Shown: positions 3,965 through 31,000 of the stretch, piece after piece
Layout of the letters: each line of letters begins with the position of its first letter
Position numbering within the stretch: the first letter of the stretch is position 1
Origin: an uncultured Clostridia bacterium
Lineage (GTDB): Bacteria > Bacillota > Clostridia > TANB77 > CAG-508
Length of the DNA stretch: 64,000 nt
Direction of reading: 5' to 3'
Assembly (NCBI GenBank): GCA_948676835.1
Contig: CAPOZU010000001.1
Span: 58,633 to 122,632 of the forward strand
Translations under genes and position numbers: made by a program
The notes under the pieces: generated by a model
Told to the model about the DNA's origin: nothing
The model's database searches: none
What the model saw: the letters and a program-made list of their open reading frames with translations, nothing else

Positions 3965-4053
3965 TAAAAATTCGAAGTTATTATATCATTAAGCACTTTG
4001 AATATCAACACTTTAATGTGTTTTCTTTGTAACTTCTTTGCATTTTTTAATAA

Positions 4054-4082
4054 TTGATTTTTTTATAAAAAAGTTGTATAAT
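4054..4082 (+). promoter_or_regulatory. Sigma-70-type promoter TTGATT-17nt-TATAAT driving GC-rich cassette 1
   Basis: TTGATT at 4054-4059, a 17-nt spacer, TATAAT at 4077-4082, about 55 nt upstream of the ribosome-binding site AAAGGAGA at 4137-4144. Confidence 0.45.
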
Positions 4083-4150
4083 ATTCTTATGTAAACACAT
4101 TTTTCGATAGCAATTTATTCTAAGGGGTATATCCCAAAAGGAGAATGATT

Positions 4151-4435
4151 ATGGCAAGACGGAACGACAAGAAACTCGCAGATCTCATGAACGCAAGAAC
4201 TTTCGTCCAACACGTAGTCGATCAACTGGAAAGATACGGCAAAACCAAACAGCAGAATTCCGCTATGGAAAGCTGTATCCAAATGCTGCCTGCGCTAAGC
4301 ACCCAACCCGCCCTAAGGAGAAGATATCTGGACATGCTCAACCGTGTCATCAAAGATAAATATTCTCCCAACATCGTACTCACTTACTTTAAGCGCGAAG
4401 ACAGTAATCTGCGTGCAAAAATCGCAGAGTTTTAA
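4151..4435 (+). CDS. Hypothetical 95-aa protein, compositionally foreign (about 46% GC); the track ATG at 4145 is an alternative start
   Basis: ATG at 4151 follows the ribosome-binding site AAAGGAGA with a 6-nt gap. Codon usage and GC are very different from the flanking wzm and galE. Protein MARRNDKKLADLMNARTFVQHVVDQLERYGK... has no recognisable family. Confidence 0.5.
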   Translation: MARRNDKKLADLMNARTFVQHVVDQLERYGKTKQQNSAMESCIQMLPALSTQPALRRRYLDMLNRVIKDKYSPNIVLTYFKREDSNLRAKIAEF

Positions 4436-4449
4436 TCAAAACACAATAC

Positions 4450-4485
4450 AAAACGAGGTGTGCCAATCCTGGCATACCTCGTTTT
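4450..4485. terminator. Bidirectional rho-independent terminator (16-bp GC-rich stem, ATCC loop) shared by cassette 1 and convergent galE
   Basis: AAAACGAGGTGTGCCA-atcc-TGGCATACCTCGTTTT with an A-run on one side and a T-run on the other. Confidence 0.7.
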
Positions 4486-4494
4486 GCTATCTTT

Positions 4495-23093: not shown

Positions 23094-24011
23094 TTAATTT
23101 GCATTAAATAAATCACTCTCATAAATTTCTCTATATTGTTTATAATCTTGTTCTGCAATTCTTTTTAGATACTTTCCATATTCAGTTTTCTTATATTTTT
23201 CTGCTTCTACTAACAAATCTTCTTTTGAAATCCATTCATTTCTATAAGCAATTTCTTCTAAGCAAGCTATTTGTGTACCTTGTCTTAATTCAATTGCTTT
23301 AACATAATCAGAAGCATCTGATAATCTGTCTGCTGAACCTGTATCAAACCAAGCATATCCATTTCCTAAAGGAATAACTTGTAGTTTTCCATTTTCCATA
23401 TATACTCTATTAACATCTGTTATTTCTAATTCTCCTCTTTCAGATGGTTTAATAGATTTTGCAATTTTAACAACTTCATTATCATAAAAATAAATTCCTG
23501 GAACTGCAAAATGTGACTTTGGATGTTCTGGTTTTTCTTCTATTGATAAAGCTTTTCCTGTTTTATCAATTTCAACAACACCATAAGAAGTTGGATCTGC
23601 AACTTGATATCCAAATATAATTCCACCTTCTTTTAAATGACTTGCTGCTTTTAAAACTCTTTCAACTCTTGAACCGTATATCATATTATCTCCTAATATT
23701 AATGATACACTATCATTTCCAATAAAGTCTTCTCCAAGTATAAAAGCGTCTGCTAATCCTACTGGTTTTTCTTGAACTTTGTATTCAAATTTCATTCCAA
23801 ATCTAGAACCATCTCCTAATAAACTTTTAAATGCTGGTAAATGAACTGGTGTAGAAATTATTAAAACTTCTCTAATTCCAGCCATCATTAATGTAGATAA
23901 TGGGTAATAAATCATTGGTTTATCGTACACTGGTAACATTTGTTTTGAAACTGCTAATGTTACTGGATATAGTCTTGTGGCACTACCACCTGCTAATATA
24001 ATACCTTTCAT
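23094..24011 (-). CDS. rfbA: Glucose-1-phosphate thymidylyltransferase
   Basis: MKGIILAGGSATRLYPVT...SKQMLPVYDKPMIYYPL matches the RmlA signature. Confidence 0.9.
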   Translation of the reverse strand: MKGIILAGGSATRLYPVTLAVSKQMLPVYDKPMIYYPLSTLMMAGIREVLIISTPVHLPAFKSLLGDGSRFGMKFEYKVQEKPVGLADAFILGEDFIGNDSVSLILGDNMIYGSRVERVLKAASHLKEGGIIFGYQVADPTSYGVVEIDKTGKALSIEEKPEHPKSHFAVPGIYFYDNEVVKIAKSIKPSERGELEITDVNRVYMENGKLQVIPLGNGYAWFDTGSADRLSDASDYVKAIELRQGTQIACLEEIAYRNEWISKEDLLVEAEKYKKTEYGKYLKRIAEQDYKQYREIYESDLFNAN

Positions 24012-27880: not shown

Positions 27881-28471
27881 TTATTTACTAACTCTAGTAA
27901 TTGAAAGTCCGTCACCTATTTCTAATATCTCTGTTTTTAAATTTGGATTTTCAGTTATTTCTTTTATATATTCTCTTAAATGTCTTACAGCAGTTCTTTG
28001 TTTATGTTTATTATAATTACTCATAACATAACCTTTATATAAAACATTATCTGCTAAAATTAATCCATTATTTTTTATTAATCTTATTCCCTCATCTAAG
28101 AAAATAGAATATTTACTTTTGGCAGCATCTATAAATACAATATCATATTCATTATTTAAAGTTGGCAAAATTTGGGTTGCATCTCCAATCATAATATTTA
28201 TTCTATTTGCCACACCTATTTTTTCAACATTTACTATTGCTTCTTTTGCTCTTTCTTCGTCTAACTCTATTGTATCAATTATTGCATTTTCTGCATATCT
28301 TGCAAAACATGATGCAGAATATCCAACAGCAGTTCCTATTTCTAAAATTCTTGTTGGTTTTTCTTGTTCTAAAATTTCCTTTATTTTTTCTAATGTATCA
28401 TCCATTATTATTGGAATATGATTCTCTAATGCTCTTTTTTTTACTATTTCAAATTCTTCTTGATTAAACAT
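27881..28471 (-). CDS. Class I SAM-dependent O-methyltransferase (family 3, YrrM/TrmR-like)
   Basis: LEIGTAVGYSASCFA...IVFIDAAKSKY motifs of caffeoyl-CoA-type O-methyltransferases; 196 aa. Confidence 0.7.
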   Translation of the reverse strand: MFNQEEFEIVKKRALENHIPIIMDDTLEKIKEILEQEKPTRILEIGTAVGYSASCFARYAENAIIDTIELDEERAKEAIVNVEKIGVANRINIMIGDATQILPTLNNEYDIVFIDAAKSKYSIFLDEGIRLIKNNGLILADNVLYKGYVMSNYNKHKQRTAVRHLREYIKEITENPNLKTEILEIGDGLSITRVSK

Positions 28472-28549
28472 TTTTTATCCCTCTTTTTGATTTTTTTACA
28501 GTATTTTTATATCACAAAACATATATTTTTTCAATTATATATATCAAAT

Positions 28550-28578
28550 TTGATTTTTATGTAAATCTATGATATACT
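28550..28578 (+). promoter_or_regulatory. Sigma-70-type promoter TTGATT-17nt-TATACT for GC-rich cassette 2
   Basis: TTGATT at 28550-28555, a 17-nt spacer, TATACT at 28573-28578. The ribosome-binding site AAAGGAGGAA lies 7 nt before the ATG at 28621. Confidence 0.45.
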
Positions 28579-28620
28579 TTTAGAAGCTCAAAAAAATACT
28601 TTATAAAGGAGGAACTTCGT

Positions 28621-28941
28621 ATGCGTAGTGATAATCTTGTATTTGCAATTGTTGAAGAAGCTTTACATCGGAAGATTAACCCTATTGACAAAGAACTGAT
28701 TGAGCGCCACCTCGAGCTTGAAGAATTTTGTCTCACTGTACCTGCTGATATGAATATTCTGAGAGATGCAGAATATTTCTGCAAAAATCAGGATCATTAT
28801 TACATGGTTCAGCTCGGTGAATTTCTTTCCTACAAGAATTTGGAACTGGATAAGCCGTTTGTGGCATATACCAGAGATCCTGTGGGAAGATGCGTTTTGT
28901 CAGGCAATGCCATTCACGAAATGGTAGCATACAGACCTTAA
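28621..28941 (+). CDS. Hypothetical 106-aa protein, compositionally foreign (about 42% GC)
   Basis: Strong ribosome-binding site. Protein MRSDNLVFAIVEEALHRKINPIDKELIERHLELEEF... has no recognisable family. GC and codon usage differ from the neighbours. Confidence 0.5.
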   Translation: MRSDNLVFAIVEEALHRKINPIDKELIERHLELEEFCLTVPADMNILRDAEYFCKNQDHYYMVQLGEFLSYKNLELDKPFVAYTRDPVGRCVLSGNAIHEMVAYRP

Positions 28942-28980
28942 CATTTCCTATAACTGTTAGTGGTTTTTAAGTTCGAAAAA

Positions 28981-29008
28981 AGCGGCGGTCTTTACTTTGA
29001 CCGCCGCT
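28981..29008. terminator. Bidirectional GC-rich hairpin terminator shared by cassette 2 and convergent typA
   Basis: AAAAAAGCGGCGGTC-tttacttt-GACCGCCGCTTTCTT, with A and T tracts on either side. Confidence 0.7.
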
Positions 29009-29021
29009 TTCTTATTATTCT

Positions 29022-30845
29022 CTATTGATTAGCATTTTGTCTTGCTGCTCTTTCTCTATCTTTATTATTTAAGATTTTCTTTCTTAATCTAATACTTTTT
29101 GGTGTTATTTCTACTAATTCATCATCTTGAATAAATTCAATAGCTTTTTCTAAGCTCATTTGAATTGGTGGAACTAAACGAAGTGCTTCATCTGAGCCAG
29201 AAGCTCTAGTATTAGTTAAATGTTTTTCTTTACATACATTAATTGCTAAATCTTCACTTCTTGAGTTTAATCCAACAATCATACCTTCATAAACTTCAAC
29301 ACCAGGTCCTATAAATAAATCACCTTTATCTTGAGCATTGTATAAACCATAAGTAATTGATTTTCCTGCTTCAAACGCAACTATTGTTCCTCTTACTCTT
29401 GCTTGAACATCTCCTTTATATGGTTCATAGCAATCGAATATGTGATTCATAGTTCCTTCACCTTTTGTATCAGTTAAGAATTCTGTTCTATATCCAATAA
29501 TTCCTCTTGCTGGTATTTTAAATTCTATTTTTGTATGTCCATCTTCTGCCGGCTCCATATTAAGCATTTCAGCTTTTCTTCTACCTAATTTTTCTATAAC
29601 ATTTCCAACACAATCATCAGGAACATTAACAACAAGTCTTTCCATTGGTTCGCATTTTACGCCATCTATTTCTTTGAAAATAACTTTTGGTCTTGAAACT
29701 AAAAGCTCAAATCCTTCTCTTCTCATTGTTTCAATAAGAACTGATAAATGAAGTTCTCCTCTACCTGAAACTTCAAATGAATCTGGTGTATCTGCTTCTT
29801 TAACTCTTAAACTAACATTTCTATCTAATTCCTTAAATAATCTATCTCTAATATGTCTTGATGTAACAAACTGACCTTCTTTTCCTGCAAATGGTCCATT
29901 ATTAACACTAAATGTCATAGAAACTGTTGGTTCATCTATATCTACAAATGGTATTTTTTCAGGATGTTCATAATCACAAATTGTATCTCCAATGTTTATG
30001 TCTGCAACTCCAGATAATGCAACTATATCTCCTGCTTCTGCATGTTCAACTTCAATTCTTTTTAATCCATCATATACATAAAGTTTTGCAACTCTTGCAT
30101 TTAAAACTTTATCTTCTGATTTACAGATTGCAACTGGCATATTTAAATCTATTGCTCCTCTTTCTACTCTACCAATAGAAATTCTACCAATATAATCATC
30201 ATAATCTATATTAGAAACTAGCATTTGCATAGTACCATCCATATCGCATTGTGGTGCATCTATTTGGTTTATAATTGTTTCAAATAAACATTCTAAATTT
30301 TCACCTGGTTTATCTAAATCTAAAGTAGCTGTACCTTGTTTTCCAGAAGCATATACAACTGGGAATTCTAATTGATCATCATCAGCTCCAAGTTCTATAA
30401 ATAAATCTAAAACACTATCAACAACTTTAAGTGGTTGTGCTCCTGGTCTATCTATTTTGTTTATTACAACAATTGGTTTTAATTTTAATGCTAAAGATTT
30501 CTTCAAAACCTCTCTTGTTTGAGGCATTGCTCCTTCAAAAGCATCTACTAATAAAACAACACCATCAACCATTTTTAAAACACGTTCTACTTCTCCTCCA
30601 AAGTCTGCGTGTCCTGGTGTGTCTACTATATTAATTTTGATATCTTTATAATGAACTGCTGTATTTTTTGAAAGTATAGTAATTCCTCTTTCTTTTTCAA
30701 GATCATTAGAGTCCATAACTCTTTCTGCAACTTGTTCATTTGCTCTAAAAATACCACTCTGTCTAAGCATAGCATCTACTAAAGTTGTTTTTCCATGGTC
30801 AACGTGTGCAATTATTGCTACATTTCTAATTTTTTGGTTATTCAT
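29022..30845 (-). CDS. typA: Ribosome-associated translational GTPase TypA/BipA
   Basis: [15 protein letters not shown]...DTPGHADF...NKIDR G-domain motifs. 607 aa, EF-G-like architecture. Confidence 0.9.
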
Positions 30846-30970: not shown

Positions 30971-31000
30971 GCGCCCCGTTATCATTTGATAACGGGGCGC
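30971..31000. terminator. GC-rich hairpin terminator downstream of the BI-1-like gene
   Basis: GCGCCCCGTTATC-atttg-GATAACGGGGCGC with flanking T tracts on both strands. Confidence 0.7.

Follow-up and report, generated by a model that had tools for sequence, protein, structure and literature searches.

The C2 locus

The subject of this analysis is a small gene, C2, carried on a stretch of 64,000 nucleotides (the window) from an uncultured Clostridia bacterium (GenBank assembly GCA_948676835.1, contig CAPOZU010000001.1, positions 58,633 to 122,632). C2 lies between a methyltransferase gene and typA, and a first-pass annotation made from the sequence alone had presented it as one of four 'cassettes'; the remaining GC-rich 'cassette' genes of the window are called C1, C3 and C4. 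Loci of relatives, all of them from metagenome contigs, carry L-numbers, and W stands for the window where it is compared with them as a locus. The features at the C2 locus are as follows.

27881..28471, - strand: O-methyltransferase, class I S-adenosylmethionine-dependent (PF01596, E 8.2e-27); left flank, divergent from C2
28550..28555, + strand: -35 box TTGATT, from a promoter scan; TTG retained in 6 of 8 aligned lineages (alignment A3)
28570..28578, + strand: extended -10 element TGaTATACT (TG at 28570-28571, TATACT at 28573-28578), after a 17-nt spacer from the -35 box
28605..28612, + strand: Shine-Dalgarno sequence AAAGGAGG, with the ATG 8 nt downstream; GGAGG at the equivalent position in 8 of 8 lineages
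28621..28941, + strand: coding sequence of C2, 106 amino acids (aa), identified by its open reading frame (ORF), homologues, ratio of non-synonymous to synonymous divergence (dN/dS), AlphaFold2 (AF2) model and G+C content at third codon positions (GC3)
28979..29010, either strand: predicted bidirectional intrinsic terminator of C2 (+) and typA (-), a 12-pair stem with 8 G-C pairs
29022..30845, - strand: typA/BipA translational GTPase (GTP_EFTU 6.2e-57, BipA_C 1.8e-47); right flank, convergent with C2

As read from its sequence, C2 is a monocistronic, self-contained transcription unit with its own predicted promoter, ribosome-binding site and terminator, and no second small ORF was found in the unit in any lineage read. 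The ORF, the TTGATT-17-TATACT promoter, the ribosome-binding site and the two flanking genes all lie where the first-pass annotation had placed them. The promoter hexamers score 9/12, and sites of this kind numbered 30 in the scan against 21 ± 5 in shuffles; the hexamer match alone is not beyond chance, and it is conservation across lineages that provides real evidence for a promoter. In an upstream alignment of 8 lineages the element TGnTATAmT is invariant (columns T99, G100, T102-A105 and T107), the -35 TTG, the spacer sequence TGTAAAT and GGAGG are also conserved, and the promoter core is identical at 18 of 22 positions between lineages whose proteins share only 28% identity. The predicted promoter is of the sigma-A (sigma-70-type) extended -10 class, conserved at orthologous positions. 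The -35 box and the spacer length do match those of C1, as had been pointed out, but the architecture common to the cassettes is the generic Firmicute sigma-A consensus, and typA itself has a promoter (TTGACA-17-TATAAT) that agrees with the consensus at 12 of 12 positions. A putative -35 box of the methyltransferase gene (28547..28542, - strand) stands back-to-back with that of C2, and together the two boxes (28543..28554) form a perfect 12-bp palindrome, ATCAAATTTGAT. The palindrome is probably incidental, since it is not conserved in L001 or L009.

Downstream, the GC-rich bidirectional terminator that C2 was said to share with typA is indeed present. The hairpin is predicted to fold at -24.0 kcal/mol (+ strand) and -25.5 kcal/mol (- strand), with an A-run upstream and a clean T6 on the typA strand. 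In 8 of 8 lineages we found a strong hairpin (-15.6 to -34 kcal/mol) flanked by A/T runs on both sides, so that each has the GC-rich stem-loop, A-run and T-run of a predicted intrinsic bidirectional terminator, with stem sequences that differ. As to whether the typA terminator of related genomes is a different, AT-rich one, the GC-rich bidirectional hairpin stands in every lineage that carries C2.

A lineage-restricted protein family

C2 is a real protein-coding gene and founds an undescribed, fast-evolving and lineage-restricted family. Translation of 28621..28941 gives exactly the 106 aa quoted in the first-pass annotation. Profile and word searches covered a library of 1.84 billion representatives and a collection of 5.8 billion clusters. 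The word-indexed search retrieved 10 clusters at 62-99% identity, all of 106-107 aa and with 43 of 106 columns invariant, and eight further members, at 24-53% identity, came from a HMMER profile scan of the 1.84 billion representatives. The exact C2 protein is indexed on 139 contigs and in 220 sample blocks. Across the 106-107 codons of the homologues the reading frame is retained, with no indels, and dN/dS is 0.32 (W-L001), 0.19 (W-L009) and 0.20 (L014-L018). Synonymous divergence (dS) was estimated here and below by NG86, YN00 being unusable for most pairs at this extreme composition; the NG86 values are biased and are underestimates. Non-synonymous divergence (dN) of C2 is 2.5-5.5 times that of the methyltransferase. 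One stretch of nucleotides (~28825-28882; alignment A5, columns ~205-262), encoding SYKNLELDKPFVAYTRNPVG, is nearly invariant in eight orthologues, and several of its synonymous positions are fixed too (for example, ACC, AGA and GAT in 8/8).

We also considered whether C2 might encode no protein at all, being either a structured RNA or an ORF that arose by chance where the GC content is higher. Within an AT-rich genome, DNA of higher GC content does give long chance ORFs, and antisense ORFs of 65-75 aa overlap C2; the C2 mRNA with its terminator folds better than shuffles (z -3.67), and the C2 coding sequences average a folding z of -2.0 against synonymous-codon shuffles. This reading is nevertheless already contradicted by the substitution pattern, with dN/dS far under 1 and a frame retained without indels, and it also has to contend with a confident AF2 model, a conserved ribosome-binding site, the absence of any Rfam match and an RNAalifold covariation term of merely -1.3 kcal/mol. 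We regard it as the most improbable of the alternatives weighed here.

The AF2 model of C2 has a predicted local distance difference test score (pLDDT) of 94.1 and a predicted template modelling score of 0.84, and three of five models were confident. The predicted elements are helices at residues 3-15, 21-34 and 50-59 and strands at 36-39, 60-64, 67-69, 80-84 and 97-104, giving a mixed alpha/beta arrangement of three helices and five strands in the predicted order helix-helix-strand-helix-four strands. The protein is acidic (pI 5.1, net charge -6) and soluble, without a hydrophobic segment. The earlier description of an acidic and helical product with two cysteines therefore holds for the acidity, while the model is mixed rather than simply helical and the cysteines are three (C37, C54 and C91). 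Conserved residues comprise D23, Q64, G66-E67, the DKPFVAYTR loop (K78-P-F-V-A-Y-T-R85) and a C-terminal A-Y-x-P, and these positions suggest a binding face.

No family is recognisable, as the first-pass annotation had also stated: C2 has no match in Pfam (none at E<=1), NCBIfam, PHROGs or PADLOC, and its model matches no known fold in the Protein Data Bank (PDB) or BFVD. The only hit of a sequence profile against the PDB was a ParM fragment at E 1.2, which we set aside as noise, and tblastn of C2 against phages and plasmids returned no match. Two specific assignments were weighed and both appear very unlikely. The first is a solitary toxin of the RelE/ParE type, or another fold of the toxin-antitoxin kind. 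Against it, there is no Pfam or PADLOC match, the gene is monocistronic with no antitoxin partner, the model has an extra helix and a different strand order, and neither the sequence nor the structure proved significantly similar to the RelE/ParE fold. The second assignment, a stand-alone fragment akin to the target-recognition domain of HsdS that binds DNA or HsdM, arose from a profile search that matched both repeats of a 561-aa HsdS-like protein (P0019, E 4.7e-4), with which C2 has a Y-Y-x-V-x-x-G-E-F motif in common. Against it, the hhalign probability to P0019 is 7.9%, for which this lead was dropped; there is no Methylase_S (PF01420) match in Pfam at E<=1, and neither hsdM nor hsdR is nearby.

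A fixed slot, its history and its neighbours

At every readable C2 locus, including the contigs with the exact allele, the order is methyltransferase (-), C2 (+), typA (-). The slot is the same even where C2 identity falls to 24-35%; the flanking proteins there are 74-82% (methyltransferase) and 93-95% (typA) identical, and typA is 77-100% identical across the clade. In close pairs the dS of C2 is comparable with that of the flanking genes (0.24 versus 0.20-0.23, and 0.67 versus 0.45-0.60). Members of the family occur in only one clade of uncultured Clostridia, which are extremely AT-rich and known from metagenomes. A scan of GTDB species representatives, made with two peptide patterns only and hence of limited sensitivity, detected a copy in a single representative, an uncultured Clostridia metagenome-assembled genome. 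The more distant relatives of the clade come from human-gut metagenomes.

Scanning metagenome contigs with a methyltransferase profile gave 80 loci (methyltransferase identity 63-91%), from which the ancestral arrangement can be read as a co-directional array, plsC>typA>methyltransferase, with plsC directly upstream of typA in ~38 loci. The gap between typA and the methyltransferase gene is 'empty' (51-144 bp) in ~30 related loci, holds a co-directional, low-GC3, Lys/Glu-rich small gene in ~20, and in closer relatives holds an opposite-strand, GC3-elevated gene of ~100-120 aa. The opposite-strand genes of L023, L024 and L026 are clear members of the C2 family and that of L025 is a probable one (hhalign 93%), while the slot genes of L031, L051, L058/L061 and L101 have no detectable homology to C2. 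Across the wider clade, the slot between typA and the methyltransferase gene is a variable spot (in L023-L102, for example at L036:3179-3499 and L086:2421-2828). The co-directional slot genes encode 93-153 aa and end in ...EER or ...DEAR; the unrelated opposite-strand ORFs have GC3 of 0.26-0.43 (for example, L051:2974-3270, L058:2066-2374 and L101:3042-3371); and some slots, judged by reading sequences only, hold hpt-like or NUDIX-like genes.

Because more distant relatives have an empty gap at this position, C2 is an insertion, placed in opposite orientation into the plsC>typA>methyltransferase array. It is an old one that was followed by long-term vertical inheritance, as the same slot in all homologues and a close-pair dS equal to that of the flanks indicate. 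The first-pass annotation had named homologues of a conserved, vertically inherited gene as the finding that would speak against its proposal, and within the clade this is what C2 proved to be, with homologues at 24-99% identity in the same slot.

The proposal itself was of a recently acquired mobile cassette, one of four that share a promoter architecture. The foreign-like GC3, codon usage and dinucleotide signature, the self-contained promoter and terminator and the empty site in relatives are all in keeping with it. What tells against it is that C2 occupies one slot in all lineages, down to 24% protein identity, with a dS that matches its flanks; that the exact allele has the same synteny on every contig read among its 220 sample blocks; that the promoter consensus is generic; and that nothing connects the four genes. 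When the four cassette regions were compared all against all by blastn, every match was short and AT-rich (E>=0.08) and no common repeats emerged, and the four genes have no DNA or protein similarity to each other. No attC site, integrase or transposase was found at the C2 locus or among the neighbours read; the sole strong inverted repeat at C2 is the terminator hairpin; the whole window has no Rfam match of any kind at the gathering threshold, and hence no tRNA; and the four GC-rich genes are scattered singly between core genes rather than arrayed. The phyletic range of C3 is also different. C2 is neither a mobile cassette nor connected with C1, C3 or C4. The reading of a mobile cassette family is thus largely refuted, and we give it very little credence; its description of C2 as an orphan, self-contained, foreign-looking and inserted gene stands.

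C3 lies between plsC and typA only in the genus of the window and in L023 and L024, and plsC directly adjoins typA, without C3, in L025, L026, L031 and ~35 more distant loci. With this different and narrower phyletic range at the plsC-typA junction, C3 is an insertion separate from and younger than C2.

The three other GC-rich genes may be described briefly. C1 (window 4050-4490; coding sequence from 4145 or 4151 to 4435, +) lies between an ABC-2 permease gene and galE and encodes a basic (pI 10), helical orphan of 94-96 aa, which Pfam, NCBIfam, PHROGs and PADLOC place in no family; it has a GC3 of 0.515, a CpG observed-to-expected ratio (rho) of 1.19, a TTGATT-17-TATAAT promoter and a hairpin terminator. 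C3 (31023..31718, -) encodes a Bax1-I/YccA-family membrane protein (PF01027, E 4.5e-19), with a terminator at ~30975-31000, and its coding sequence is far more stably folded than shuffles of its synonymous codons (z -2.5 and -4.5). C4 (34242..34919, -) encodes a 225-aa orphan, the true start being the ATG at 34919 (MPGYYIHFAAC...), with a GC3 of 0.30, a TTGACA-17-TATACT promoter, a hairpin terminator and no family found. C4 is conserved in L001, L105 and L009, with GC3 down to 0.14 in L009; a signal-peptidase-like gene (a weak, below-threshold match to Peptidase_S24) and genes for small secreted proteins sharing an ARW[KN]F motif adjoin it (35014-36684).

The left half of the window is mostly a cell-surface polysaccharide locus (866-27756) with an ABC-2 permease and ATPase, several glycosyltransferase-like and membrane proteins, rmlA/C/D, epimerases, DUF7657 and glmU; in relatives, additional genes (DUF2142 and DUF6541) separate glmU from the methyltransferase gene. 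A diverged paralogue of C2, of ~104-110 aa and GC3 0.31-0.43, lies on the opposite strand a few kilobases away in three loci, after glmU or the methyltransferase gene:

L014:2840-3172, + strand: C2 paralogue
L018:2837-3169, + strand: C2 paralogue
L025:4133-4447, - strand: C2 paralogue

The paralogues form a subfamily of four clusters, linked to the C2 family by hhalign (76% and 53%) and jackhmmer (E 1e-3). The flanks also show mosaic recombination between species: the typA (29022..30845) and rmlA (23094..24011) proteins of the window are 100% identical to those of L009, with a typA dS of 0.14, and glmU, the methyltransferase and an Asp23-like gene are 90-95% identical (glmU 95%) with a dS of 0.44-0.64, C2 being 62% identical.

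As to what C2 does, we offer a guess that we hold only tentatively and think more apt to be wrong than right: C2 might not be an enzyme but an accessory factor, of the immunity or modulator type, that binds a partner in the cytoplasm. The guess is prompted by the fast evolution of the protein, the patchy occupancy of the slot, the nearby paralogue in a variable cell-surface glycan locus and the monocistronic unit. Binding would proceed through the invariant face formed by D23, Q64, G66-E67, the DKPFVAYTR loop and the C-terminal AY-x-P tail.

Composition against the host background

C2 is a compositional island far beyond chance. Its GC3 of 0.355 lies 12.8 standard deviations above that of the host genes (0.111 ± 0.019, n=54, maximum 0.161), and GC3 exceeds 0.2 in exactly four of the 58 long ORFs of the window, namely C1 (0.515), C2 (0.355), C3 (0.47-0.49) and C4 (0.30). 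As intergenic GC in the window is 0.22, C2 lies above the non-coding background too. Across 16 orthologous genes the GC3 of C2 ranges from 0.19 to 0.45, compared with 0.06-0.12 for host genes in the same loci, with these values at the individual loci:

W 0.36; L107 0.39; L001 0.36; L108 0.39; L105 0.38; L106 0.45
L023 0.45; L009 0.23; L024 0.25; L025 0.31; L026 0.27
L014 0.28; L018 0.36; L019 0.33; L020 0.19; L022 0.38

The deviation extends over the codon table and the dinucleotides. The isoleucine codons ATA/ATT/ATC number 15/84/32 in 18 family genes and 196/126/8 in the methyltransferase orthologues (ATA versus ATT, p 2.5e-16), and TTA makes up 19% of leucine codons in the former and 71% in the latter. 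The rho of CpG is 0.44-1.19 in the four cassette genes of the window and 0.21-1.01 in the C2 orthologues, compared with 0.23 in the host, and that of TpA is 0.46-0.77 against 0.82 ± 0.06. G-ending and C-ending codons are both raised in the cassette genes of the window, and we rejected translational optimisation for high expression because the increase in G-ending two-fold codons, CTG and CGG is as large as that in C-ending ones. GC-rich minority genes seem to be a general trait of the clade, since 21 of 459 ORFs of at least 80 aa in L023-L102 exceed the median GC3 of their locus by >0.15. Most of these are small and have no obvious relatives (for example, L023:469-894, L043:4277-4573, L044:5508-5993, L046:4176-5129 and L093:45-611), and a few are probably spurious.

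We then asked how long such a signature lasts in this host, scoring synonymous third positions as S (G/C) or, in these counts, W (A/T). In glmU and the methyltransferase gene the S/W state is randomised between the group of the window and the L014/L018 group (exp(-lambdaT) -0.02 to 0.03), and the S-S counts of 3-5 between those groups are those of chance. With host sites randomised, passive decay would leave GC3 at most ~0.24 even from an ancestor at 1.0. Between the window and L001, the probability that a site which is S in one is S in the other is 0.80 in three GC-rich genes, compared with 0.37 in the host (Fisher p 3e-24), and discordant sites in the GC-rich genes number 70 against ~146 predicted from host turnover. 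In a six-taxon set, singleton W>S gains occurred at 16 of 31 ancestrally W sites in C2 and at 21 of 137 in the methyltransferase gene (p 5e-5), and sites that are S in all taxa amount to 9-10 of ~55 in C2 versus 0 of 145. These unpolarised concordance counts and singleton tests replaced a parsimony polarisation with L009 as outgroup, which we judged unreliable: its host control gave 169 W>S against 40 S>W changes, implying an equilibrium GC3 of 0.24 where the true value is 0.07. Ten C2 orthologues fold better than their synonymous-codon shuffles, the mean z of -2.0 given above comparing with -0.74 ± 0.81 for 16 host segments, which is suggestive and adds weak extra support for selection.

We infer from these results that the GC-rich, ATA- and TTA-avoiding, TpA-poor and less CpG-depleted usage of C2 is no fading relic of transfer: selection on codons or mRNA keeps it, against the strong AT mutation pressure of the host, at an equilibrium specific to this gene. 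Of the three options considered, namely selection, slow amelioration and re-seeding, this is the one we favour, at slightly better than an even balance. Amelioration would mean a single ancient transfer from a GC-richer donor, with passive decay still under way and no selection. Textbooks would lead one to expect it (Lawrence and Ochman 1997, cited in PMC11293555), it accords with the lower GC3 of L009 (0.23), L020 (0.19) and L024 (0.25), and the W-L009 site patterns are those expected if GC3 had simply decayed from ~0.65 in an ancestor at about the rate of the host. Set against this, C2 retains a GC3 of 0.28-0.45 in most lineages on both sides of a divergence over which host S/W states are randomised, for which the GC3 of the ancestor would have had to exceed ~0.9; its S sites persist about twice as well as those of the host; it gains S at 3-4 times the host rate per W site; and the avoidance of ATA, which is GC-neutral, persists in all 18 genes. 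Amelioration is in our judgement unlikely.

Re-seeding, that is, recurrent allelic replacement at a recombination hotspot from an unsampled GC-richer reservoir (phage, plasmid or another taxon), would account for the extreme divergence of C2 (24-35% identity) beside flanks that are 74-95% identical. The mosaic flanks noted above, with typA and rmlA 100% and glmU 95% identical between the window and L009, the unrelated GC3-elevated ORFs in the same slot of L051, L058/L061 and L101, and the terminator hairpins that differ between lineages also point that way. However, searches of protein collections, phages and plasmids yielded no homologue in any other synteny, close-pair dS is concordant with the flanks, and the promoter core is conserved in situ, and we rate re-seeding a shade lower still than amelioration.

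Taken as a whole, the explanation that C2 is a real gene of an undescribed family, inserted long ago, inherited vertically and kept at its composition by selection appears to us fairly probable. Several points weigh against it. The selection tests are parsimony-type and two-state counts made on metagenome contigs, and the W-L009 pair, as said, fits simple decay. Host G/C third positions may be unusually short-lived if AT-ending codons are selected in host genes (host GC3 is 0.11, intergenic GC 0.22), and a GC-richer donor pool may lie beyond the sampled collections. Conserved mRNA structure with covariation was not found by RNAalifold (-29 kcal/mol, including the covariation term already given). 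The remaining two of the five AF2 models were poor (pLDDT about 50), the input alignment of 11 sequences being shallow, and searches by family, fold and neighbourhood gave no functional clue. With regard to the host itself, coding DNA is strongly CpG-depleted (rho 0.23) and only 37% of G/C third positions are common to the window and L001, a very fast turnover; together with the GC3 below intergenic GC, these features suggest that AT-ending codons are favoured or that a CpG-specific mutational process is at work.

A wider form of selection on composition can also be put forward, though we find it rather doubtful: in these extremely AT-rich Clostridia a small minority of genes, C1, C2, C3 and C4 in the window, may be kept by selection in a private codon or nucleotide dialect, with the C2 protein being a new fold. 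The dialect would favour codons that end in G or C, avoid ATA and TTA, contain few UpA and tolerate CpG, and it would outlast host synonymous randomisation. Its purpose could be long-lived or RNase-resistant mRNAs, or expression insulated from, or gated by, the A/U-decoding tRNA pool.

Several known systems bear comparison. In a survey of gut-bacterial orphan genes (Genome Res 2024), the GC and GC3s of orphans closely match the native genome (PMC11293555). C2 resembles those gut ORFans in being short, under purifying selection, without viral similarity and without homologues beyond a narrow lineage; it differs in a GC3 that is 2-4 times the host value and in being conserved and syntenic across a multi-species clade, neither rare nor species-specific. 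As a gene, C2 is one more lineage-restricted hypothetical protein, albeit with a confident model that lacks a match in the PDB or BFVD.

Like ameliorating genomic islets, C2 is atypical in its codons and dinucleotides, has been inserted between conserved core genes and is missing from the orthologous site in relatives. In contrast to them it has no mobility genes, flanking repeats, adjacent tRNA or donor, and its composition is not converging on that of the host while host synonymous sites fully randomise. Integron cassettes are promoterless, end in attC and are arrayed beside an integrase. C2 is like them a single-gene unit of ~0.5 kb, and they too often encode small proteins of unknown function; unlike them, C2 has its own predicted promoter and terminator, and we found no attC-like or common inverted repeat, no integrase and no promoterless array next to intI with the cassette promoter Pc.

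In Streptomyces, bldA and TTA provide rare-codon control, in which a small minority of genes uses codons that are rare elsewhere in the genome. Gating of C2 by the A/U-decoding tRNA pool would be the mirror image of this control, with the difference that C2 shifts a whole codon table and not one codon; the parallel is a lead only. Atypical composition is routinely taken as a sign of recent horizontal transfer; here such a signature has been passed on stably at one site throughout a multi-species clade, against a very strong AT mutation bias. If selection is indeed its cause, calls of horizontal transfer based on composition can mislead in extreme genomes, and C2 would offer a natural system, at maximal contrast with its background, for asking what synonymous-site selection acts on, be it mRNA stability, decoding or regulation. 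In terms of function C2 is an ordinary-looking hypothetical protein; it is its evolutionary signature that is unusual, and this is well supported.

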